NCBI GenBank assembly: GCA_049517415.1
Contig: JBEKSC010000046.1
Location: 1-11,107, forward strand
From: Candidatus Bathyarchaeia archaeon
GTDB lineage: Archaea; Thermoproteota; Bathyarchaeia; 40CM-2-53-6
Reading direction: 5' to 3'
Length of the DNA: 11,107 bases
Made by a program: the position numbers and the translations under genes. A model generated the notes under the pieces. That model was not told the origin of the DNA. It did no database searches and saw only the letters and a list, made by a program, of their open reading frames with translations. This document shows positions 1-11,107 of this stretch, one piece after another. How positions within the stretch are numbered: position 1 is the first letter of the stretch; each line of letters opens with the position of its first letter.

Positions 1-471
1 CGATCCTACCCGAAACACGCCCTGAAACCCAGAGAACCCTACCCCGAGCTGACCAACTTCGGGGCCTGCAAGTTCGCCGCCAGAACTGCGTACAAGATGG
101 CGGGAATCAAGAAGCCTCTCAAGGAGGTCGACGTTGTAGAAATACACGACGCCTACGATTCGAGCGAGCTCCAAACCTACGAGGATCTAGACTTTTGCAA
201 AAGGGGCGAAGGCAAGACGCTCATCAGGGAAGGACAGACTTACGTGGACGGTGAAATACCAGTGAACGTCAGCGGGGGTCTGGAAGGGTTCGGGCACCCG
301 GTTGGCTCTACGGCGATCGGTCAAACCGTCGAGCTCTTTTGGCAACTGAGACAGGAGATTGGAAAGAAGCACAAGAGCAATGCCACTCAAGTGAAGGGCG
401 CGAAAGTTGGGCTTAATCACAGCCATGCGGGCACCGGAACTGCGATCTCAGTCATGATCATGGAGAGGTGA
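1..471 (+). CDS. Thiolase-family protein (archaeal/SCP2-like acetyl-CoA acetyltransferase), C-terminal part, 5'-truncated by the window
   Basis: Frame 1 is open from base 1 (RSYPKHALKP...) through the listed 97..471 ORF. It has thiolase C-terminal motifs VVEIHDAY, PVNVSGGL and GHPVGST, and is followed directly by a DUF35 gene as is typical for archaeal thiolases. Confidence 0.9.
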   Translation, partial: RSYPKHALKPREPYPELTNFGACKFAARTAYKMAGIKKPLKEVDVVEIHDAYDSSELQTYEDLDFCKRGEGKTLIREGQTYVDGEIPVNVSGGLEGFGHPVGSTAIGQTVELFWQLRQEIGKKHKSNATQVKGAKVGLNHSHAGTGTAISVMIMER

Positions 472-1154
472 TGGAAATGCAACCTGACAAAGTTGTCAAA
501 GAGAAGAAGCCCGATGAGAAATGGAACGAATGGGGCCGGTCTGGGAAGTGGAACGTGGTCGGCTACAAGATCATCGAAGGGGACAAGGGCCCAAGACCTG
601 ACAAGCTCGAAAGAGCAAGATACATGCTCGTTAACCGGCCATGGGACGTGATGTACGAGCACAGTTACGGACTGGTCTCAAGATTCTTTGAGGAACTGCT
701 CGAGAAGAAGTTGTTCGGAACCAAGTGTCCGAAATGCGGAGACGTATTCTGCCCGCCGAGAGCGCACTGCTGGAGGAACAAGTGTCGTCTTGCTGAGACT
801 CAGTGGGTAGAGATGCCAATGCGTGGCATGCTTCACTGCTTCACAGTCCTTGGCTTCGCAGGCGAGGCATTTCTGGCGGATCTGCCTTTCATATTGGCTT
901 ATGTCAGAGTTGAAGGGGCGAACACTCTGATCGCAGGCCGCCTAGTGGGCATCGAGCCAGAAGATGTAGAGTGCGACATGAATGTGGAAATCAAGTTCGT
1001 TGATCAGCCCAGCGGCAATCCCATGGATATCTACTTCGTTCCGGCAGGACCCCCGCGGGGCAGAAGATCAGAGGAAGAAAAGGCGCGAATGAGGAAACAA
1101 CTCGAACCGATACGGGTCTGGGTGAAAGAACGATTTGGTCAGAAAACCAAGTAG
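471..1154 (+). CDS. Zn-ribbon + OB-fold (DUF35/ChsH2-like) protein, thiolase partner
   Basis: CPKC-x4-PPRAHC-x4-C zinc ribbon followed by OB-fold (PFILAYVRVEGA...). Overlaps the thiolase stop (TGATG). Start could be 468 (GTG), 471 or 477 (ATG; GAGGTGAT SD-like sequence just upstream). Confidence 0.88.
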   Translation: MEMQPDKVVKEKKPDEKWNEWGRSGKWNVVGYKIIEGDKGPRPDKLERARYMLVNRPWDVMYEHSYGLVSRFFEELLEKKLFGTKCPKCGDVFCPPRAHCWRNKCRLAETQWVEMPMRGMLHCFTVLGFAGEAFLADLPFILAYVRVEGANTLIAGRLVGIEPEDVECDMNVEIKFVDQPSGNPMDIYFVPAGPPRGRRSEEEKARMRKQLEPIRVWVKERFGQKTK

Positions 1155-1279
1155 AGGGGCACTGCCCTACAACATCGAAGTCAAAAAACGATTGTTACCT
1201 CCAATTGGCGATAAGGATCGTGTAGTTTTCAGGGAAAGCGCCAAATGCACGGGATCTATACTTGACATTGAGCATTTCG

Positions 1280-1312
1280 AAAAAGGAGCCTAGTCTCTTG
1301 GATACTAAGGCT
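1280..1312 (-). terminator. Candidate hairpin + U-tract terminator after the cobalamin-binding subunit gene
   Basis: Minus-strand RNA reads AGCCU-U-AGU-AUCCAAGAG-ACU-AGGCU-CC-UUUUU, starting in the stop codon: an 8-bp stem with one bulge, then 5 U. Confidence 0.35.
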
Positions 1313-1750
1313 ACTTCCAACGTTCCTTCTTAACGCGGCCCACTATGTGGTCGACGATTGCTTTCAGAGTTGTGCCTGGGCCGAAATTTCCCGTTATTCC
1401 CAACTTCTCAAGTTTTGGTTTGTCTTCTTCGGGAATAATGCCGCCGCCTACAAGCAGTATGTCGCTTGCGTGTTTCTCTTTCAACGCCTTCGCGACTTTC
1501 GGGAACGCCGTCATGTGTGCCCCGTTGAGCAGACTCATTGCGACAACATCAACATCCTCATCAATAGCCATCTGAGCGACTTGCTCAGGGCTGGCCAAGA
1601 GCCCTGCATAGATTACTTCCATCCCAGCATCTCGGAGTGCCCTGCACAGAACAAGGGCGCCACGGTCGTGCCCGTTTGGCCGTAGGTTTACGCGAGCCCG
1701 GGCTTCGCCACAAGCACCCTAATCTTTTTCTGCTCGGTCTTCCTATCCAC
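1311..1750 (-). CDS. Cobalamin (B12)-binding small subunit of acyl-CoA mutase (IcmB/MCM C-terminal type), split by a 17-nt intron: join(complement 1693..1750, 1311..1675), 140 aa
   Basis: Exon 1 reads VDRKTEQKKIRVLVAKPGL and exon 2 reads (D)GHDRGALVLCRALRDAGMEVIYAGL... Removing 1676-1692 gives CTC GAC GGG CAC GAC CGT GGC = LDGHDRG, the DxHxxG cobalt-ligand motif. Downstream SLLNGAH and VGGGIIP motifs are intact. The ORF track only finds the truncated 1311..1622 piece. Confidence 0.9.
1676..1692 (-). other. Putative 17-nt bulge-helix-bulge (BHB) mRNA intron, CGUAAACCUACGGCCAA
   Basis: Fold: exon stem GCCCG/CGGGC (5 bp), central helix GGCU/GGCC (4 bp), bulges CG^C and AA^A (3 nt each), intron stem GUA/UAC with AACC loop. 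Cuts after the 2nd base of each bulge match the boundaries that restore the Asp codon. Unspliced it gives an in-frame TAA and a frameshift. Confidence 0.88.
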
Positions 1751-1773
1751 CGTGCGTGTTGTTGAGATCTTTC

Positions 1774-1780
1774 CACCTCC
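1774..1780 (-). promoter_or_regulatory. Shine-Dalgarno-like site GGAGGTG for the B12-binding subunit gene
   Basis: Minus strand GGAGGTG lies between the large-subunit stop (1786-1788) and the small-subunit ORF. Confidence 0.55.
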
Positions 1781-1785
1781 GGAGT

Positions 1786-3558
1786 TCAGAGTATCGAGGG
1801 TTCCTTCCAGTCCCCGAACACTTTTCTCCCAACGTCAACGATCTCTCCAAGTGTCGCATAGGACTTGACCGCTTTAAGCATCGGGTAAATACTGTTTGAA
1901 TTAGGATCCTCGAAAGAAGAGCGAAGTTGTTCTAAAGAGTTTTTCACCGCGGTACCATTCCGAGTCTTTTTGAGTTCACCTAACCTCTTTACCTGGCTCT
2001 GGCGCACTTTTTCGTCGATTCTTAAAGTCTCGATGGGGGAAGCTTCATTCATTTCGTAGGCATTGACTCCCACAATAACTCTCTTGCCTTCTTCCATCTG
2101 ACGTTGGTACTTGTATGAGGTGTCTGCAATTTCTCTTTGGATGAAACCTTTCTTGATGGCGGCCAGAATACCGCCTATGTCCTCGATTTTAGCGAGATAC
2201 TCGAATGTTCGCTGTTCCAGTTCATCCGTTAACCACTCCACATAATAGGACCCGCCGAGAGGATCGATTACATTGGCAACACCTGTTTCTTCGGCTACCA
2301 GTTGCTGCGTTCTCAGGGCGATTAGGGCAGCCTGCTCTGTTGGCAGGGCCCACGCTTCATCGTAGGCGTTTGTGTGCAGGGATTGTGTTCCACCCAGTAC
2401 TGCGGCTAAGCCCTCTACCGCAGTTCTTACAATGTTGTTGAGTGGTTGTTGCCACGTCAACGATACACCTGATGTCTGGGTGTGAAATCGCATCAGCATT
2501 GACCTTGGGTCTTTCGCATGGTATTTTTCCTTGAGAACCTTAGACCAGATTCGTCGCGCAGCCCGGAATTTTGCAATTTCCTCGAAGAAATCCATCCCGC
2601 AGTTAAAGAAGAACGACAACCTGGGGGCGAAATCATCCACCTTCAGCCCAGCCTTCAGGCCTAAGTCTACATACGCAAAACCATCGGCGAGCGTAAAAGC
2701 CAGCTCTTGCAAGGCGCTTGAACCAGCTTCGCGAATATGGTATCCGCTTACGCTGACATAGTTCCACGTCGGCATGTGTTTTGTGGAGTAAAGCATCATG
2801 TCACGGATAATTCGGAGGTGAGCTTCAGGGGGATACACCCACTCTTTTTGGGCAGCATACTCCTTGAGAATATCCGTCTGCACGGTGCCACGCAGTTTTC
2901 TTGAATTAAATCCGCGCTCATCCGCGAGTGCAACATACATACAAGTTAGGACAGAAGCCGGCGCGTTGATTGTCATTGAGGTACTGACCTGATCAAGCGG
3001 AATGCCATCAAAGATGGCCTCCATGTCTTTGAGTGACGATACGGAAACGCCGCATTTGCCAACTTCGCCTTCCGCCCTCGGATGGTCGGCGTCAATTCCA
3101 TACAAAGTGGGCATATCGAAAGCGATGCTCAGCCCAGTTTCGCCCTCTTTAAGGAGGTACTTTAGGCGGGCGTTGGTTTCCTCAGGGCTCCCGTAACCAG
3201 AGAACATTCGCATAGTCCACGGGCGACCTCTGTACATGGTAGGGTAGATTCCACGGGTGTATGGAAATTCGCCGGGTAATCCAATATCACGGTGATAATC
3301 ATGGTGCGACACGTCAGTAGGATCGTAGATGCGCTTGAGGGGGATCCCTGAGGGATTCTCGAAGGCTTCCCTCCGCTCAGGTGCATTCGCCAACCATTTC
3401 ATGAGCGTGCCTTGGTTCCATTTGCGCTGATTTCGCGCAATGGAATGGAGCTCTTTGCGGTTGTACAGCGTGGCCTGTTTCTTTTTCGCGGCTGTAATTT
3501 GCTCAACTTTCCTGGCCCAGTAATTTATTCTTCGTTTTGGGGGCATTTGTTTCCACAC
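1786..3558 (-). CDS. icmA: Acyl-CoA mutase large (substrate-binding) subunit, isobutyryl-CoA mutase-type
   Basis: MCM-family motifs PGEFPYTRG, GLSIAFD, STSMTIN, SGYHIREAG, FHTQTSG, GGTQSLHTN, DPLGGSYYVE; no fused B12 domain. Specificity positions are Phe (WTMRMF) and Gln (KEYAAQ) rather than Tyr/Arg. The true start is uncertain and may lie downstream of 3558. Confidence 0.85.
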   Translation of the reverse strand: MWKQMPPKRRINYWARKVEQITAAKKKQATLYNRKELHSIARNQRKWNQGTLMKWLANAPERREAFENPSGIPLKRIYDPTDVSHHDYHRDIGLPGEFPYTRGIYPTMYRGRPWTMRMFSGYGSPEETNARLKYLLKEGETGLSIAFDMPTLYGIDADHPRAEGEVGKCGVSVSSLKDMEAIFDGIPLDQVSTSMTINAPASVLTCMYVALADERGFNSRKLRGTVQTDILKEYAAQKEWVYPPEAHLRIIRDMMLYSTKHMPTWNYVSVSGYHIREAGSSALQELAFTLADGFAYVDLGLKAGLKVDDFAPRLSFFFNCGMDFFEEIAKFRAARRIWSKVLKEKYHAKDPRSMLMRFHTQTSGVSLTWQQPLNNIVRTAVEGLAAVLGGTQSLHTNAYDEAWALPTEQAALIALRTQQLVAEETGVANVIDPLGGSYYVEWLTDELEQRTFEYLAKIEDIGGILAAIKKGFIQREIADTSYKYQRQMEEGKRVIVGVNAYEMNEASPIETLRIDEKVRQSQVKRLGELKKTRNGTAVKNSLEQLRSSFEDPNSNSIYPMLKAVKSYATLGEIVDVGRKVFGDWKEPSIL

Positions 3559-3639
3559 GAACTTAGAAAGTTCAGAGGAGGGGCGTTAATGTTCTTTTGG
3601 GTAATCTGAGGCCGTTGTCCTTCAAGGTCATATACGTCC

Positions 3640-5256
3640 TTGGTTCCTAGGATTGTTCGTCCAACTTTGAAGGAAAAGAAGAGTTCTTCTTCGCCGGCCA
3701 CGACAGGGAAGCAACACTTCGGCGCGTCAGATTCCAGTCCTCACTACCCCAAAGGCATTCTAGGTGAACCTGGCAAATTTCCATTTACGCGCGGTATCTA
3801 CCCTGAAATGTACCGTTCGCGGCTCTGGACGATGAGGCAGTATTCAGGGTTTGGTAGCGCAGAAGCCACGAATAGGCGTTTCAGGTTTCTGATAAAACAA
3901 GGACAAACCGGGCTCAGTGTTGCCTTTGACCTTCCGACTCAATTGGGGTTTGATTCAGACAGCCCGAGAGCTGAGGGCGAGGTGGGCCGGGTAGGAGTAC
4001 CCATCAGTTCCGTGGAAGATATGCGATTGCTTTTCCGAGGCATCAAGCTTGGAACGGTCAGCACTTCCATGACCATCAACGCTACTGCGGCCATAATGCT
4101 GGCGATGTATGCTGCGGTAGGGAGTTCGCAAGGGGTTCCGCTTTCACGATTGCGGGGAACGACGCAGAATGATATTCTCAAAGAGTACATAGCTCGAAAT
4201 ACCTACATCTTCCCTCCCGAGCAATCCTTGAGGTTGTCCGTGGATATCATCGAATTTTGTGCAGAACAGATGCCGATGTGGCACCCGATCAGCATAAGCG
4301 GATACCACATAAGGGAAAGTGGCTCAAGCGCAGTCCAGGAACTCGCTTACGCGTTTGCAAACGCAGAAGAGTACGTTCGCGCTTGCATTAAGCGAGGATT
4401 GGAGGTCGACGATTTCGCACCACACTTGTCCTTCTTCTTCGCATGTCATAACGACTTCCTAGAAGAGATAGCGAAGTTCCGTGCAGCACGTCGCATATGG
4501 GCGCATATGATGAAAGAAAAATTCCACGCGAAGAATCCTGAGTCTATGAAGCTACGTTTCCATACTCAAACTAGCGGGGAAACGTTGACTGCACAGCAAC
4601 CGCAAAACAATATTGTGCGCGTGGCCATACAGGCTTTGGCAGCGGTCTTAGGGGGTACACAATCCTTGCACACAAATTCCCTCGACGAAGCGTTATCTTT
4701 GCCTACAGAGGAAGCCGTGAAAATAGCACTCCGAACGCAGCAGATAATTGCCTTCGAGAGTGGCGTGACAAAGGCAATCGACCCATTGGGTGGGAGCTTC
4801 TACGTGGAATCCTTGACGAACAAGATTGAAAACGAAGCGAAAGCCGAGATTCGTAAAGTCGATGAATTAGGCGGTGCTGTGAAAGCAATTCAGAGCGGAT
4901 ACATCCAGAATCAGGTTCGCGATAGCGCCTTCAAGAGGCAAATGGGCATAGAATCGAGCGCTCACAAGATAGTCGGCGTTAACGTATATGTTGACACGAA
5001 ACCGTACCATATTACCCTCCATAAGATCGAGTCAGCCGCGGTACGCCGGCAGATCTCTCGCACTAAGGCTTTCAAGCGAAAACGCAAGAAAACTCAGCTA
5101 CTTCGTAACCTCAGAACGCTTCAGAATGCTCTAGAGCGAGACATCAATGTAATGCCTTTGATAATCAGCGCTGTAAAGTCCGGAGCCACCACCGGCGAAA
5201 TAAGTGATGCCATAAGAGAAGAGTATGGGGAGTTTCATCCCAAGACCATTATCTAG
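3640..5256 (+). CDS. mcmA: Methylmalonyl-CoA mutase large (substrate-binding) subunit
   Basis: Same family motifs, with the MCM specificity residues Tyr (WTMRQY) and Arg (KEYIAR); no fused B12 domain. TTG start is uncertain. Confidence 0.9.
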   Translation: MVPRIVRPTLKEKKSSSSPATTGKQHFGASDSSPHYPKGILGEPGKFPFTRGIYPEMYRSRLWTMRQYSGFGSAEATNRRFRFLIKQGQTGLSVAFDLPTQLGFDSDSPRAEGEVGRVGVPISSVEDMRLLFRGIKLGTVSTSMTINATAAIMLAMYAAVGSSQGVPLSRLRGTTQNDILKEYIARNTYIFPPEQSLRLSVDIIEFCAEQMPMWHPISISGYHIRESGSSAVQELAYAFANAEEYVRACIKRGLEVDDFAPHLSFFFACHNDFLEEIAKFRAARRIWAHMMKEKFHAKNPESMKLRFHTQTSGETLTAQQPQNNIVRVAIQALAAVLGGTQSLHTNSLDEALSLPTEEAVKIALRTQQIIAFESGVTKAIDPLGGSFYVESLTNKIENEAKAEIRKVDELGGAVKAIQSGYIQNQVRDSAFKRQMGIESSAHKIVGVNVYVDTKPYHITLHKIESAAVRRQISRTKAFKRKRKKTQLLRNLRTLQNALERDINVMPLIISAVKSGATTGEISDAIREEYGEFHPKTII

Positions 5257-5280
5257 GAAGATAACGAGGCGCCCACGCTC

Positions 5281-6255
5281 GTGCCTAAATCGCATGCAAA
5301 ATCAACGCCCAGCGCATTAATTCGAAAAGCTGTGCATGGGGATCGACGTGCCATATCACAGTTAATGTCGATGGCTGAGAATGACCCTCAAGCGAGGATT
5401 ACGATTCTTTCTAAGTTGTACTGGCTTACTGGGAAGGCGCAAATCGTTGGCATAACTGGTCCGCCAGGATGCGGAAAGAGCACGCTGATTGCACAACTTG
5501 CGAAGCGTTACAGAGATGCTGGCCGCAGTGTGGGAATTGTCGCTGTCGACCCGTCAAGTCACATAACTGGTGGAGCCTTGCTTGGTGATCGAATTAGGAT
5601 GGGAGAACTCGCCTCGGATCCCCGAGTTTTTATCAGGAGCATGGCTACTCGCGGGCATTTTGGGGGGGTTGCAAGAGCAACGGAAGACGCGGTTCGAATC
5701 CTAGACGCTTCGGCGATGGACTATGTGATTGTTGAAACAGCGGGAGCGGGTCAGTCAGATGTTTATGTTAAGCAACTTGCGCATACCACTGTCGTCGTAA
5801 CTGCCCCCGGGATGGGGGACGAAATTCAAGCTTTGAAAGCGGGCATTATGGAAATCGCAGATATCTTCGTCGTCAACAAGGCCGATAGGGAGGATGCGGA
5901 CCGCGCGGCGCAAGAAATTCACCAAATGATTATGATGTCCGAACCTTTCCGAGGCTGGCGGCCACGCGTCCTGAAGACGGTTGCGACATCCGGGGATGGA
6001 GTCGCCGGACTCGTGGAGACGATAAACCAACATGCAAAGTACCTTGGGGATTCCGGCGGGTTGCGGAAAACTAGAGTTGCACGCCTGCCTTCTGAAGTGC
6101 TTGAAGTAGCCAAACAGTACTTTGAGGAGGTAACGCTGAAAGAAATAGCGACATCCGAAATGTTTCAGAAAATTATGAGGCAGGTAACAGCGAACAAAAT
6201 TGACCCTTACTCCGCGGGCCGCAAATTAGTCAGTAAGCGACTTGCAAGACGCTAG
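5281..6255 (+). CDS. meaB: Methylmalonyl-CoA mutase-associated GTPase MeaB (ArgK/MMAA family)
   Basis: GITGPPGCGKS Walker A, AVDPSS, GGALLGDRIRM, FIRSMATRG, VETAGAGQ, NKAD; 24 nt downstream of the mutase gene. Confidence 0.95.
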   Translation: MPKSHAKSTPSALIRKAVHGDRRAISQLMSMAENDPQARITILSKLYWLTGKAQIVGITGPPGCGKSTLIAQLAKRYRDAGRSVGIVAVDPSSHITGGALLGDRIRMGELASDPRVFIRSMATRGHFGGVARATEDAVRILDASAMDYVIVETAGAGQSDVYVKQLAHTTVVVTAPGMGDEIQALKAGIMEIADIFVVNKADREDADRAAQEIHQMIMMSEPFRGWRPRVLKTVATSGDGVAGLVETINQHAKYLGDSGGLRKTRVARLPSEVLEVAKQYFEEVTLKEIATSEMFQKIMRQVTANKIDPYSAGRKLVSKRLARR

Positions 6256-6362
6256 TTTGAGCTTACCCGAGAAGGGAAGAAACTGCAAGATCAGCCCCTC
6301 TGGACCCGGAAAATCGTCCATCCATTGGAGGATGCCTCTATGCGTGCGCGCGGCTAAACCAA

Positions 6363-6397
6363 AGTGTATAACACCTTAACATTGGGGGTATAACACT
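6363..6397. repeat. Direct repeat GTATAACAC x2 (6366-6374, 6388-6396) with flanking inverted AGTGT/ACACT; candidate operator
   Basis: Exact 9-bp repeat at 22-bp spacing in the intergenic region upstream of the PolB2 cassette. The regulatory role is inferred. Confidence 0.45.
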
Positions 6398-6451
6398 CGA
6401 TGAACCGCCTCAAAATGCAGAACGCTTTACATTCACATATCTCTGACAGAC

Positions 6452-7252
6452 ATGCGCTCAATCTGGTCTCCCAGATTATCTGCTTGTATTCTTCACGGCA
6501 ATTCTATGGTTCCATTGAATTGTAAAGTAACCGTCGAAAACTTTGTGAAAGTTAACGACCTTCTAGGCAAGCGTGAACAGTTACAACCTGATTTGACTTC
6601 TGGCATGGAAGTCATAGACGGGATCTTGAGGCTCAACTTCGGCCAGTTTGTTACGTTTCAGGGGAACCATGCACATGCTCTCTCTATGTTACTCTGCGTC
6701 AGGGCGACTCTGCCACAACCGTTAAGCCCAGATTGTGATTCGGTATTCGTTGACGGAGGTAACCTTTTCGACCCATACTATATCTCAGACCGCTCAGTTG
6801 AGCATGGCCTTGACACGGAGAAAGTGTTAGAACGTCTTCACGTCAGTAGGGCTTTCACCCACCACCAACTCGCGTGCCTCATAACCGATAAACTTCCACC
6901 CGCGATAAAGAAATTCAGGGCGAAATTCGTCGTCGTCTCTGGCATTACGCAGCTCTACCGCGACCCAGACATACAGGGCGAGGATAAAGAAGATGCACTT
7001 CGCATCTTCGCGAAAACTGTAAGAAAACTCGCAAGCCTCGCCAGACAACAAAAATGCTTGATAATTGCAACGAACTTAGAATCCAGAAATACACTAATGG
7101 ATCACATCCTTGCACAGGCCGCTCACGTTGCTGCAACAATCGAGCAAAAAGACACCTTGATTCGATTCTCATTACGGAAACATCCATGGCTTCCCCCAAG
7201 CACCGCTGTCGCATCCTCGCCTGGGATCGTGACTTTGGAGAGTTACCTGTGA
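6452..7252 (+). CDS. Inactivated RadA/Rad51-like ATPase-fold protein associated with PolB2
   Basis: LTSGMEVIDGIL, VFVDGGNLFDPY, LERLHVSRAFTHHQL and VVVSGITQLY resemble the RecA/RadA core, but the Walker A GxxxxGKT is absent (FQGNHAHALS). The real start is probably ATG 6506 or GTG 6545. Confidence 0.8.
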   Translation: MRSIWSPRLSACILHGNSMVPLNCKVTVENFVKVNDLLGKREQLQPDLTSGMEVIDGILRLNFGQFVTFQGNHAHALSMLLCVRATLPQPLSPDCDSVFVDGGNLFDPYYISDRSVEHGLDTEKVLERLHVSRAFTHHQLACLITDKLPPAIKKFRAKFVVVSGITQLYRDPDIQGEDKEDALRIFAKTVRKLASLARQQKCLIIATNLESRNTLMDHILAQAAHVAATIEQKDTLIRFSLRKHPWLPPSTAVASSPGIVTLESYL

Positions 7253-7506
7253 TGGGGCGAACAATACCGTCATGGAGAATGGTCGTAGAGGCTGAGGTTG
7301 AGAAACTGAAAAGATTTCAGGAATTTCTCAGAGAAGAAGACAAAATCATTTTCGAAGATATGTTGAACCAATGTAAGCTGCTCGCGTCAGCGGCGAGTGC
7401 AATGGCCTCACCAATAAAACAGGTGCCCTTGATCATTTCTATGCTGTTCGCGCACCACAAGAAAATTATCGAATTAGAGAAGAGGATCGAAGAGCGGGGC
7501 CTTTGA
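7252..7506 (+). CDS. Small alpha-helical PolB2-associated protein (arCOG07300-like), 84 aa
   Basis: MGRTIPSWRM... begins at the ATG overlapping the upstream TGA (TGATG); its own stop overlaps the polB2 TTG (TTGA). This position matches the conserved PolB2 operon. Confidence 0.8.
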   Translation: MGRTIPSWRMVVEAEVEKLKRFQEFLREEDKIIFEDMLNQCKLLASAASAMASPIKQVPLIISMLFAHHKKIIELEKRIEERGL

Positions 7507-9782
7507 AGCATCAAGGCTGGATCCTTGACCTCTACCCTAATGCTGGCCAAATGGTGGTCTGGCTCAAGCAGCCCGACGGATCATGTGTTAGGCTAGTTGA
7601 CAGGTGGAAACCACGAATCCACATTGGCGGGGAGCTTGACGACCTTCTAAACCTTCAACCATTCATACCATCAGGCACATTCGTCGAGAAATTTGAGAGG
7701 GCAGGCGATAAGTCTGAGAGTAAAGTTCTCGAAGTTGAAGTAAACGACGAACCAGAAGCCCAAGCTCTGGGACGAAAAATCCTCCGGCATGGTGGATACT
7801 CGACGTTTAGGCTCTACGACGTGGATGTCCCATCAACTCAAATGTACCTCTATCACAACGACTTGTTCCCTCTAGCGTTCGTCGAGGCCGACGCCTCTCA
7901 TGGCCGCGTTAAGTGGGCTGTCAATGATTCACGTGAAACAATCGACTACGAACTACCAGCGCTTCGAAACCTACGGCTAGAAATTAGCACCAAGAAGACT
8001 CGTAGAGTCTCACGATTTGAAGACGAATTAGGCTCCATTAAAATCCAAACCAACGGGGACACCATGATTTTCGATTCAGGCAGTGAACTCGACAAACTTG
8101 ACAAACTCGTCACAGCATTCCGCGAAATTGACCCAGACGTAGTCTTGACGGAAGGCGGAGACTCCTTCATCTTTCCCTACTTGGCTAGACGTGCTCACCA
8201 CCACCATATACTCCACAGAATGGTTCTCGGAAGGGAGGAGTCGCCGCTTCGTGTTTATGAGGTGCAAGGCCACAGTTACTTCTCGTACGGGAAGATGCTC
8301 TTCAAGCAAACCGCCGCAAGACTGCTGGGCCGGTTGCATGTGGACGAGGCGAATGGTTTCATCAGCAGCGACTGCGGCCTCGAAGGCCTTTTCGAAGTAG
8401 CCCGAACCTGCATAATCCCATTGCAGAGGGCCTCGCGAACGACGATTGGCACTAGTATGACGTCCCTTCAACTCTACCACGCCGTCAAAGCCAACGTGCT
8501 AATCCCCTGGAACAAGAACGAGCCCGAGGAGTGGAAGAACGGAAACGAGCTCATACTAGCGGACCGCGGCGGCTTCATTTACGAACCAAAATTCGGACTA
8601 CACGACTCCGTTGGGGAACTCGACTTCTCCTCCCTATACCCAACCATAATGCGCAACATGAACCTGAGCGGGGAAACCGTACGTTGCAACTGCTGTCCAG
8701 ACTCCGTTCATAGAGTACCAGAGCTGGGGTGGAATGTTTGTGAACGATGGAACGGCATAGTGCCCAGATCGCTCGACATATTACTCCGGAAACGTGCGCT
8801 TTACAAGAAGTACAAGAAAGAAGCTACGGACCCACCTACGAGGTTGCGGTATGATCAACGCCAAGCCGCGCTCAAATGGATCCTAGTCTGCTCATAGCCG
8901 CCTCGAAAGCGGCGGGCAATTGGATACCTAGGCTTCAAGAACGCGCGGTTTGGGAGAATCGACGCGCACATCGCAACCTGCGCTTACTCCCGGCAGATTC
9001 TACGAAAAGCGGTTGCAATCGCGGAATCCAAGCGCTTCCAACTCATACACGGCATCGTGGATTCGATGTGGCTCCGGGAACCTAACGCAACCCCAAGCGA
9101 GTATGAGGAACTATGCCGCACGATAGAGGAGCAGCTACGCTTCCCGATAGCGTTCGAAGGATGCTACAAGTGGATTGTGTTCCTGAACTCGCGAATAAAT
9201 CCGCGAATTCCTGTCCTCAACCGTTACTACGGAATCTTTCAAGACGGGAAACTCAAAGTCAGAGGAATCGACCTCCGCCGCCACGACACTGCCGGCATAG
9301 TCAGGCGATGCCAAACGGACGTGCTGACCACACTCTCGAAGGCTGATAACTCAGAGGAATTCATGACGCTCATACCTGAAGCGCTGACGGTAGTAAGGTC
9401 ATACGTTCACCTAATCAGAAGCGGAGCTATCCCAGTCGAGGAACTCGTTATCGAGAAACGCCTCAGCAAGAATCCCAACGAATACAGAAATCTGGTTCCA
9501 CAAGCCATCGCGGCTAAACACCTTGCTGCGGAAGGCATGGAGGTACACGCCGGGCAAACAATCAACTACATCTTAACCTACGACAAGTCTAGGATAAACC
9601 AGAACAGAGCTCTCCCAACTGAGCTGATGGATGAAGGATCCGACTTCGACTCGGAGAGGTATGTCGATCTACTACTTTCCTCAGTTGTCAACCTTCTACT
9701 ACCCTTTGGATATGATCTAGCAGCGTTGAAAGACCCTGACAGGCAAATCAGCAAAGCACCAGGTTTAGGTTCGCCTAGGTAA
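7503..9782 (+). CDS. polB2: Family B DNA polymerase, PolB2 group, split by a 24-nt intron: join(7503..8895, 8920..9782), 751 aa
   Basis: ORFs 7503..8897 and 9057..9782 are in the same frame with a single TAG between them. Motif A is ELDFSSLYP; motif B is restored to KWILVCSFGYLG after removing 8896-8919; motif C is the PolB2-type HGIVDS. NRYYG and KVRGIDLRRHD are present; exonuclease acidic residues are degenerate. Confidence 0.9.
8896..8919 (+). other. Putative 24-nt BHB mRNA intron, AGCCGCCUCGAAAGCGGCGGGCAA
   Basis: Central helix GCUC/GGGC (4 bp), bulges AU^A and AA^U, intron stem GCCGC/GCGGC (5 bp) with 7-nt loop; exon-side stem imperfect (CCUAG 8882-8886 / CUAGG 8928-8932 further out). 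Cuts after the 2nd bulge base join T8895 to TT8920-8921 = Phe. Unspliced it creates TAG at 8895-8897. Confidence 0.85.
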
Positions 9783-10407
9783 CAATTTGCCCCACAATTT
9801 CCTTGTGTTGTGTTTCATCAATCGTCCCAAGAGCAACAAGCTTATCGGCAATTTGCCGCATCGTCGTGAAAGTGTGAAGCTTCACCCCGGCCTTTCGAAG
9901 GTTCTCCTTAGCACCTTGCTGTCGATCAAGGAGTACAACGGCGTCCTCGACGACTCCCCCTTCGCCACGGATTGCTTCAACCGCCTCTATGATGTTCTTC
10001 CCGGTCGTTGCGACATCATCTAATACCAAGACCTTGTCGCCTGGTAGCAGGAGGCCCTCAATTCGACGCTCACGGCCATGTTCCTTCGTTTCCTTTCGGA
10101 CATAAAGAAACGGTTTTGAGAGGTTGAATGCTAACACAGCTGCGTAGACTATACCGGCAGTTGGTATACCTGCCAAACGTTGAATCCTCTTCGCTAGGCC
10201 AGGTTCCACGACGGCCCGGTAGAAATTAATCGCCCTGTGAAACGCCTCGGGGTCGCCTGGAAGAAGACGCAGGTCAACATAATACGAACTCAGTATGCCG
10301 CTTGCAAGCTTGAATGTTCCGAATTTGAGGCTTCCAGTTCTCAACAGAATCTCGGTAAAATCATCCTCACCCAGACTTTCGCGCACAGCAGGTACCCCTT
10401 CCTTCAT
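9775..10407 (-). CDS. pyrE: Orotate phosphoribosyltransferase
   Basis: KFGTFKLASGILSSYYVDLR, YVRKETKEHG, and PRPP-binding loop VLVLDDVATTG. Confidence 0.95.
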   Translation of the reverse strand: MKEGVPAVRESLGEDDFTEILLRTGSLKFGTFKLASGILSSYYVDLRLLPGDPEAFHRAINFYRAVVEPGLAKRIQRLAGIPTAGIVYAAVLAFNLSKPFLYVRKETKEHGRERRIEGLLLPGDKVLVLDDVATTGKNIIEAVEAIRGEGGVVEDAVVLLDRQQGAKENLRKAGVKLHTFTTMRQIADKLVALGTIDETQHKEIVGQIVT

Positions 10408-10555
10408 AGAATCGCCTCAGCGTTTATTCTTTTGCAGAACACTATCCAATGACGCTGTCCGAACAACGAATTTCGCTCGCCCCATGTAAATGAAACTTTA
10501 ACCAGCACAAGAGCAATCGGTAACGAAGTGAACTGCAGGAAGGCGCTTTCGGCTC

Positions 10556-11107
10556 TTGGTCGAGGTTTGGCTCCCATATGGAACATCCGAGATCCCCGTA
10601 CGCGTACCCGAAGAGAGACTAATCAACATCTTCAGAACACAGAACCCCAACAAACCATTGGACACCCTAACTGAGGCGAGAAAGCTAATCGAATCTAACG
10701 AACACTTCCAAACAATCGCAAAAGAGGCTAAACAACCATGCATTGCCCTCGGGCACTGCGGCAACGGACCGCTAGCAACAGATCTGATCAAGGTCCTTCT
10801 GGAGAACCTGGGAGCCCAGAGGCCCGCGATTACAATATTGCGCACGCAAAGTGCGGTTGAACTCAACCCAGGGACACTTTCTGAAACCACAGTTTCTGAT
10901 CATAACCCAAAACTGTCGCCTACCCTTCCAATTGAGGATTTCAGCGGCAAGTTTTCACCGCAGCTGAATGCAGACTTCTTCAAAGCTGACCTCCGGCTCG
11001 TAGTAGGAGAACTGAAACCCAGCCACTTTCTCCAATACACCGGAATATGCGACATAGTTTTCCCAGGCCTGGCCTCCGAGAGCTCTGTTCGCAGTCATCT
11101 CACGAAC
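10556..11107 (+). CDS. Lactate racemase (LarA) N-terminal domain-like protein, degenerate, 3'-truncated by the window
   Basis: Not in the ORF track. TTG at 10556 opens a frame with no stop to the window end: MVEVWLPYGTSEIPVRVPEE...LNADFFKADLRLVVGELKPSHFLQYTGICDIVFPGLAS, resembling the LarA-family patterns LPYG, N-x4-AD-x4-G and PG-x-A. Confidence 0.7.
   Translation, partial: MVEVWLPYGTSEIPVRVPEERLINIFRTQNPNKPLDTLTEARKLIESNEHFQTIAKEAKQPCIALGHCGNGPLATDLIKVLLENLGAQRPAITILRTQSAVELNPGTLSETTVSDHNPKLSPTLPIEDFSGKFSPQLNADFFKADLRLVVGELKPSHFLQYTGICDIVFPGLASESSVRSHLTN

Follow-up and report, generated by a model that had tools for sequence, protein, structure and literature searches.

A bulge-helix-bulge intron in motif B of the DNA polymerase gene polB2 of a Bathyarchaeia archaeon

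Introduction

The closest described counterparts of the element reported here are the introns of the archaeal gene cbf5, which are 16-44 nucleotides (nt) long, occur in Desulfurococcales and Sulfolobales and mostly have a relaxed bulge-helix-bulge (BHB) motif; according to the available text of that report splicing had not been confirmed for any other archaeal pre-mRNA (Yokobori et al. 2009, PMC2738675). A BHB intron has also been described in the 5′ untranslated region (5′-UTR) of Haloferax volcanii HVO_1309, in a paper that gives cbf5 as the sole further case (Schwarz et al. 2020, PMC7714728). In the available parts of both papers cbf5 is the only archaeal coding sequence named as bearing an enzyme-spliced intron, and more cases are called for (PMC7714728, PMC2738675). 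Here we describe a 24-nt BHB intron in the coding sequence of polB2, the gene for a presumed damage-tolerance DNA polymerase of family B, of an uncultured Candidatus Bathyarchaeia archaeon (assembly GCA_049517415.1). The gene lies on contig JBEKSC010000046.1, of which positions 1 to 11,107 of the forward strand were analysed; this stretch of 11,107 nt is called the window, and plain positions refer to it.

Results

The polB2 frame (7503-9782, forward strand) contains a sole internal stop codon, a TAG at 8895-8897 that spans the 5′ splice site of a 24-nt insert at 8896-8919. Within the insert, a 5-bp stem (8897-8901, GCCGC, with 8909-8913, GCGGC) closes the loop CUCGAAA (8902-8908), and a central helix of 4 bp is formed between exonic GCUC (8890-8893) and intronic GGGC (8914-8917). 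Two bulges flank the central helix, AU^A on the 5′ side (8894-8896) and AA^U on the 3′ side (8918-8920), with predicted cuts after 8895 and after 8919; we deduced these positions from the BHB rule (cutting after the second bulge base) and from intron-less orthologues. The exon-exon pairing around the motif (8882-8932) is imperfect, with 8882-8886 paired to 8928-8932 and weak pairs beside the 3′ bulge. Exon 1 (7503-8895) provides 464 codons and 1 nt, exon 2 (8920-9782) 2 nt, 286 codons and the stop. Excision of 8896-8919 joins T and TT to a phenylalanine codon, converts VCS-stop-PPRKRRAI-GYLG into VCS-F-GYLG and yields a frame of 464 + 1 + 286 = 751 amino acids (aa). The original prediction, made from the letters of the window alone, had claimed this intron with its boundaries, helix and bulges, the TAG as the only stop of the gene and the restored motif and length, and the sequence reads as claimed in each respect. 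The match to the NCBIfam profile NF004418 reaches profile position 435 (the Cys before the stop) and restarts at position 437 (the Ile after the insert).

A protein search with one genome per species gave 71 homologous loci. As a survey for inserts at the same site, which had been proposed together with the prediction, it was productive: 22 loci carry an insert at the same base, while 41 are uninterrupted, three have an intein, three have one extra base and two were unreadable. The 41 intron-less loci read VCS/CA/TC-FGYLG with nothing inserted, and their length equals that of the spliced product. Together with the window, the protein-found set comprises 22 distinct introns of 20, 21, 23, 24, 26, 31 or 32 nt, which all share the three bases of the 5′ bulge and an A as the first base of the 3′ bulge (22/22 each). 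Sixteen of these 22 inserts are not multiples of three, and all three frames occur; neither readthrough of the stop nor a translated loop can therefore be general. A scan of metagenomes, with a pattern that contained the bulges and the central helix, added at least 120 loci. All sources combined hold at least 82 distinct intron cores of 20-32 nt. Among the matches listed, 51 cores are out of frame, the junction stop is TAG or TAA in 82/82 distinct cores (TAA where the stem starts with A-U), and the BHB cut yields FGYL in 98/98 distinct intron-plus-flank variants. One locus of the metagenome scan (L168) is not polB2 and was dropped, three of the 16 hits of one pattern scan (L049-L051) had no hairpin by eye and were not used, and viral contigs gave no match to the intron pattern. 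At an unscored locus of the same genus (L017, G013:C28), polB2 is exchanged for unrelated sequence upstream of motif C, intron site included.

Across the phylum, the best 30 loci from a sample of 401 genomes were the window itself, one unreadable locus and 28 intron-less loci, 26 of which lie outside the order. The best 120 database proteins to exon 1 end at VCS/VCA in 103 cases, as pieces of 448-470 aa; 16 continue with FGYLG and one enters an intein. A translated insert in homologues, named beforehand as an observation that would speak against splicing, was found in none of the 120.

The structure is conserved in the protein-found set. Its central helix is paired in 88/88 cells, the intron-side helix is present in 22/22 distinct introns, and in all 22 the intron stem starts with three formed pairs, in which double changes occur. 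L102-L104 have an Ala codon in place of Ser, and the pairing base in their intron carries the matching change (U-A to G-C), a double change that spans the exon-intron boundary. Pairing is seen in 91% of the cells of alignment A2, where both sides have changed at 6/12 pairs. Both the number of cells with changes on both sides of the pair in this alignment (32, compared with 9.2 shuffled and ≤4 slid) and the covariation score (0.41, compared with 0.17 for shuffles and ≤0.08 for slid partners) must be read in view of kinship, which inflates the shuffle controls and is preserved in the slid control. The exon-side helix is imperfect, and a mismatch beside the 3′ bulge in 23/23 intron-bearing loci bears out the predicted relaxed BHB. 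The commonest exon-side pattern (a mismatch, then four pairs) is found in 22/44 intron-less and 11/23 intron-bearing loci; being equally frequent without the intron, it predates the intron and is not specific to it, and this half-BHB shape may have made the site receptive. In 23/23 intron-bearing loci the codons are TGC and then TCA or GCA, a usage that fits the requirement of helix and bulge; intron-less loci vary here.

Judged from the ratio of nonsynonymous to synonymous substitution rates (dN/dS), both exons are under purifying selection. The ratio is 0.06-0.19 in exon 1 and 0.08-0.15 in exon 2 (10 and 11 of 12 intron-bearing pairs, respectively, with measurable dS), and 0.07-0.17 in intron-less pairs (n=5). 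The first 45 codons of exon 2, which contain no ATG, GTG or TTG, are equally constrained.

The effect of kinship on the shuffle controls is one of several points that weigh against the reading as a spliced intron. On the bulges and the central helix the metagenome loci give no independent evidence; the protein-found set does. The BHB is in the predicted fold, with a central-helix probability of 0.54 in a 74-nt context, but the fold of the single sequence is within chance (z -0.96; 30/200 shuffles fold equally well), so that the BHB rises above chance by the comparison with relatives and not by its lone fold. For L059, with an intron of 20 nt, the central-helix probability is just 0.04. Among the matches listed, early stops in exon 2 were found in 5/118 metagenome loci (64 are full, 49 run off the contig) and breaks in exon 1 in 2/116; L061 is also broken in exon 1, and some intron-bearing copies may be decaying. 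The intron-less L094 and L099 are broken as well. Finally, no spliced RNA was seen; the one RNA run with part of the stretch, among 24 listed runs, gave four contigs of a related strain that cover 7550-8640 and end before the junction, and so speaks neither for nor against splicing.

Contigs from three DNA runs are identical to the window over the whole gene; they may be the source of the assembly and are hence non-independent. Contigs of co-occurring relatives diverge from the window inside the intron loop, at 8900 (run X16) and 8902 (run X14), and show other intron variants in the same samples. A group I or group II self-splicing intron was ruled out by the length of 24 nt, without a large catalytic RNA core, and Rfam gave no match at E up to 1 in 8700-9100. 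Taken together, 8896-8919 is a real BHB intron in motif B of polB2.

The history of the intron was followed on a protein tree of 56 rows, with 13 of 69 omitted as long branches, near-copies or surplus outgroups; a quick tree of all 69 was also made. Intron presence needs at least six changes on the 56-row tree, and a single intron clade is rejected by the approximately unbiased (AU) test (p-AU 2e-48). In the simplest reading the intron was gained once, at the root of a 37-row clade, and was precisely lost from L085, from L054/L055 and from a 16-row clade. L102-L104 form a separate group (42-44% identity) with an intron of different sequence, which was either gained independently or is left over from an older presence. 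Transfer between lineages, reported to be frequent for PolB2 (PMC11791011), could also produce the observed distribution.

Two other kinds of interruption occur at this place. In five relatives (L020, L021, L078, L079 and L087) Cys and Ser are separated by an intein (WILVC/SFGYLG). Its insertion point lies within the central helix, between 8891 and 8892, and precedes the intron site by 4 nt. A parallel to inteins, which also target conserved polymerase motifs, had been drawn from the start; it is closer than was claimed. L078 (36-4352) has a motif-B intein with LAGLIDADG domains and a second intein in motif A; we take these two positions to be the sites called pol-a and pol-b. Next to polB2 of L078, on the opposite strand (4759-6765, minus), lies a second RadA-like gene pair, one member of which has an intact-looking Walker A motif. 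Further proteins with a motif-B intein number seven in one protein search and one among the best 120 homologues, P0120 being common to both. Motif-B inteins fall in two intron-less clades only. Among the matches listed, none of the 162 intron-bearing loci (duplicates included) has a motif-B intein, which the metagenome pattern would have allowed, and none of the 143 readable ones has a motif-A intein.

At the intron codon, the intron-less loci L071-L073 are longer by one base and read UCC UUU CGG (near 3495-3500; in L071 near 2800), a pattern also seen in L243-L245. On both sides of the extra base dN/dS is 0.07-0.12. The +1 pattern occurs in 3/105 genomes of the order, all of one genus and possibly the same genomes as L071-L073. 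In a protein search of 120 clusters, 6/120 end in the shifted frame and 104/120 read FGYLG. The sequence resembles the known +1 frameshift site UCC UUU CGU (PMC8310308), and the allele is a candidate for +1 ribosomal frameshifting or transcriptional slippage.

Gene neighbourhood

Three adjoining genes on one strand, iRadA, PPB2 and polB2, have the layout of the described iRadA-PPB2-PolB2 operon (PMC11791011). The first encodes an inactive RadA/Rad51 homologue (6452-7252, forward strand, given as the longest open reading frame; Pfam Rad51 E 1e-10) that scores under every RadA/RadB cut-off in a profile search. PPB2 (7252-7506, forward strand), a small helical PolB2 partner of 84 aa, was assigned by its open reading frame and its initial MGRT motif (PMC11791011); it overlaps both the stop of iRadA and the start of polB2 and has no match in Pfam or NCBIfam. 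Exon 1 of polB2 encodes the N-terminal and exonuclease-like domains, motif A (DFSSLYP, 8622-8642) and the start of motif B (KWILVCS), and exon 2 the remainder of motif B (GYLG), motif C (HGIVD, 9048-9062) and the thumb. PolB2 polymerases have HxxxD in place of YxDTD as motif C, and a D(K/R) motif (PMC8764526, PMC11791011); both features are present, as HGIVD and as ADRGG in exon 1.

All named relatives of polB2 in the protein search are Bathyarchaeia. A second PolB2 copy was not found in the genome, whose three other PolB matches are just 23-28% identical. A PolB3-like gene (G000:C7, ~17,050, minus strand, upstream of the match of locus L002) has an in-frame TAG where the genomes G021, G018 and G016 have CAG, which is either a private nonsense change or an assembly error. 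Upstream of iRadA (6363-6400) a 9-base word occurs twice, ~25 bases apart and with the first copy inside a near-palindrome, a possible operator for a damage-response regulator. Promoter and terminator scans gave chance levels only; their consensus is bacterial, the host archaeal. Further upstream lies a cluster resembling that of methylmalonyl-CoA mutase (1311-6255), presumably with a B12-binding subunit (1311-1622, minus), two paralogues of the large subunit on opposite strands (1786-3558, minus; 3640-5256, plus) and MeaB (5281-6255, Pfam); the names given to the mutase genes are our assumption from sequence motifs.

Splicing machinery and other introns of the genome

Two paralogues of the tRNA-splicing endonuclease EndA are encoded in the genome. 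The alpha paralogue has the catalytic Tyr, His and Lys and aligns over its full length, loop included, to the crenarchaeal structures 3p1z, 3ajv and 2cv8 (E 1e-36 to 1e-39). The second lacks the His-containing segment and gives a weak match to beta-subunit models. The ligase RtcB is also present (E 3e-172). The genome thus encodes a two-subunit EndA with a crenarchaeal-type loop and, judging by sequence, probably broad specificity, of the kind that the original prediction had considered suited to a relaxed BHB; efficient cutting of relaxed BHB motifs is known from (αβ)2 enzymes with such a loop (PMC6379350).

Many tRNA genes of this genome are interrupted by introns, and two further protein genes carry a BHB intron. 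In cbf5 (locus L280, G000:C24:34228-34246, plus) a frame-shifting intron of 19 nt lies in GTL-D-P and splits the Asp codon, as in crenarchaeal cbf5 (PMC2738675); the table in the available text of that paper lists the cbf5 intron for Desulfurococcales and Sulfolobales only. In glyA (locus L281, G000:C45:3291-3322, plus) the intron has 32 nt, and the Pfam SHMT match is contiguous across it (profile 50/51). With these two cases in the same genome, mRNA splicing appears to be routine in this lineage. Genome-wide scans for mRNA introns were of limited use: with loose settings the output was too noisy (145,104 motifs, 451 candidates), and from stricter scans with 57, 101 and 19 candidates only polB2, glyA and cbf5 were accepted, a number that is a lower bound, as the first two strict scans missed cbf5. 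A strong-looking candidate at G000:C9:2912 turned out to be a gene boundary.

An origin of the polB2 intron from a tRNA intron was considered and rejected: no match with ≤2 mismatches lies inside a tRNA intron, and two hits in the genome appear to be coding sequence. The intron hairpin (8897-8913) matches 16/17 bases of the spliced tRNA-Thr(CGU) anticodon arm (G000:C1:7136-7175), which is found in 17/23 genomes of the genus. Intron loops range from 3 to 9 nt among the variants listed; several 24-nt variants keep anticodon-like loops of 7 nt and most others do not. The resemblance is unexplained and may be chance.

Discussion

We consider it very probable that EndA cuts the polB2 transcript at both bulges, that RtcB joins the exons and that only the spliced RNA gives an active polymerase. 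What the data show is the insert with its conserved structure, constraint on the two exons and genes for the enzymes; cutting and ligation are our inference. The iRadA-PPB2-polB2 transcript would fold into a relaxed BHB (HBh′), the (αβ)2 EndA would cut after 8895 and after 8919, and RtcB would ligate the exons, so that the spliced mRNA could be translated into the full PolB2 of 751 aa. Unspliced RNA would be read to the junction TAG and give a 464-aa piece that lacks motif C, the thumb and the last part of motif B and is expected to be inactive.

If the RNA were not spliced, the TAG might be read through (e.g. as pyrrolysine or Gln) and the resulting loop of eight residues be tolerated in motif B. 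The insert of this genome is a multiple of three, and in its PolB3-like gene a TAG stands in frame at a codon that is CAG in three relatives. However, the inserts of relatives shift the frame in 16/22 cases, no PylS above the cut-off was found in the genome, TAG terminates 486/1465 long coding frames and shows no enrichment at in-frame junctions, and a translated insert is absent from all 120 homologues; readthrough thus seems extremely improbable. Split archaeal PolBs exist, and the gene could be dead or encode a polymerase of two chains, the second of which starts inside exon 2. With the truncated piece of 448-470 aa held by the databases (103/120 top matches) and the further breaks in a few intron-bearing copies this would agree, but both exons have a dN/dS of ~0.1, no in-frame GTG follows the insert until motif C (9057), the 45 codons ahead of it are strongly conserved, and compensatory change would not preserve an RNA helix in a dead gene. 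We regard a dead or split gene as very unlikely.

There remains the question why a spliced intron persists in this gene. The most likely reason, to which we give about an even chance, is that it is a tolerated intron in an intron-rich lineage: it would have entered a site already shaped like half a BHB, and it persists because only an exact deletion is harmless in this conserved motif. The intron might instead be selected as a gate, restricting how much of a mutagenic polymerase is made or when, with splicing either competing with coupled ribosomes that halt at the junction TAG or shifting under DNA damage. The PolB2 of Sulfolobus (Dpo2) is induced by damage and is the chief source of targeted mutagenesis (PMC7390963), a stop is found at the 5′ junction in 82/82 intron cores among the matches listed, and the +1 allele of an intron-less sister lineage is a possible second throttle at the same place. 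We nevertheless think a gate unlikely, given at least three precise losses within the main clade with unchanged dN/dS, close relatives of the +1 allele that mostly read plain FGYLG (104/120), and the presence of similar introns in two housekeeping genes of this genome, cbf5 and glyA. Nor does a relaxed BHB establish slow splicing. The original prediction had suggested that weak splicing could control the polymerase; this is unsupported so far, since relaxed motifs are usual in cbf5 introns and are cut efficiently by (αβ)2 enzymes, and the same imperfect exon helix occurs in intron-less alleles. Still more doubtful is that the intron is kept as a shield of motif B against a homing intein, by splitting the likely target of its endonuclease; an intein landing there would presumably break the central helix and hence splicing. 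The inteins of relatives do sit 4 nt from the intron site, and intron and motif-B intein never occur together among the loci listed. The endonuclease target is presumed, however, and with two independent intein clades only, absence from the intron lineages may be chance. Motif-A inteins are likewise absent from intron-bearing loci, so these lineages may just not meet inteins, and the two elements may simply persist at sites that tolerate only their exact removal. A combined reading, which we put forward tentatively, regards motif B of Bathyarchaeia polB2 as a contested site with three exclusive states (RNA intron, homing intein and +1 frameshift), at which the intron would be kept for blocking the intein endonuclease, for throttling a mutagenic polymerase via the tRNA-splicing machinery, or for both. 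If true, this would be an archaeal counterpart of stress-controlled mRNA splicing without a spliceosome, or an intron acting as anti-intein defence.

To the cbf5 case the present one adds a DNA polymerase with at least 82 natural intron variants and with gains and precise losses on one tree. The gain and loss of such introns, any regulation of the host gene by them and their interaction with inteins at the same motif thereby become testable in one gene. There is also a practical cost to overlooking the intron: PolB2 looks broken in these genomes and is probably whole, and 103/120 of the closest database proteins are cut at this site.

Comparison with known systems

In the literature searched, at the level of main texts, neither introns in archaeal polymerase genes nor mRNA introns of Bathyarchaeia are described. 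The available parts of a 2025 EndA paper, a 2026 splicing review, an Asgard tRNA preprint and an Asgard genome paper yielded no further coding-sequence case, and no intron in PolB2 genes was seen in those of PMC11791011 and PMC8764526. With the PolB2 mutasome operon and Sulfolobus Dpo2 (PMC11791011, PMC8764526, PMC7390963) the locus shares gene order, MGRT, HxxxD and D(K/R); the damage-induced, error-prone extender activity is known for Dpo2 only, whereas the PolB2 of Bathyarchaeia is known from its sequence. As in the inteins of other B-family polymerases, LAGLIDADG inteins are found at motifs A and B in relatives of this gene. Such inteins undergo translation and then protein splicing, and they code for an endonuclease of their own, whereas the polB2 intron encodes nothing and needs the enzymes of the host.

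Non-canonical tRNA introns of Thermoproteales and Asgard archaea (PMC11291895; PMC6379350) have the same size, HBh′ motif and enzymes, but the host of the polB2 intron is an mRNA. The HVO_1309 intron is likewise an mRNA substrate of EndA; unlike that of polB2, it lies outside the coding sequence and breaks no frame. The closest likeness is to the cbf5 intron. Both are short (16-44 nt there, 20-32 nt here), contain no open reading frame, have a relaxed BHB with cuts after the second bulge base and a variable interior, mostly break the frame, interrupt a conserved functional motif, have been lost precisely in single lineages and go along with a hetero-oligomeric EndA. They differ in that cbf5 splicing was shown by complementary DNA (cDNA), whereas polB2 splicing is deduced, and in that the polB2 intron resides in a DNA polymerase gene of Bathyarchaeia, requires at least six changes on the tree with possibly two gains, and shares its site with an intein and a +1 allele. 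The polB2 intron is a cbf5-type BHB intron in a new host gene and a new lineage.

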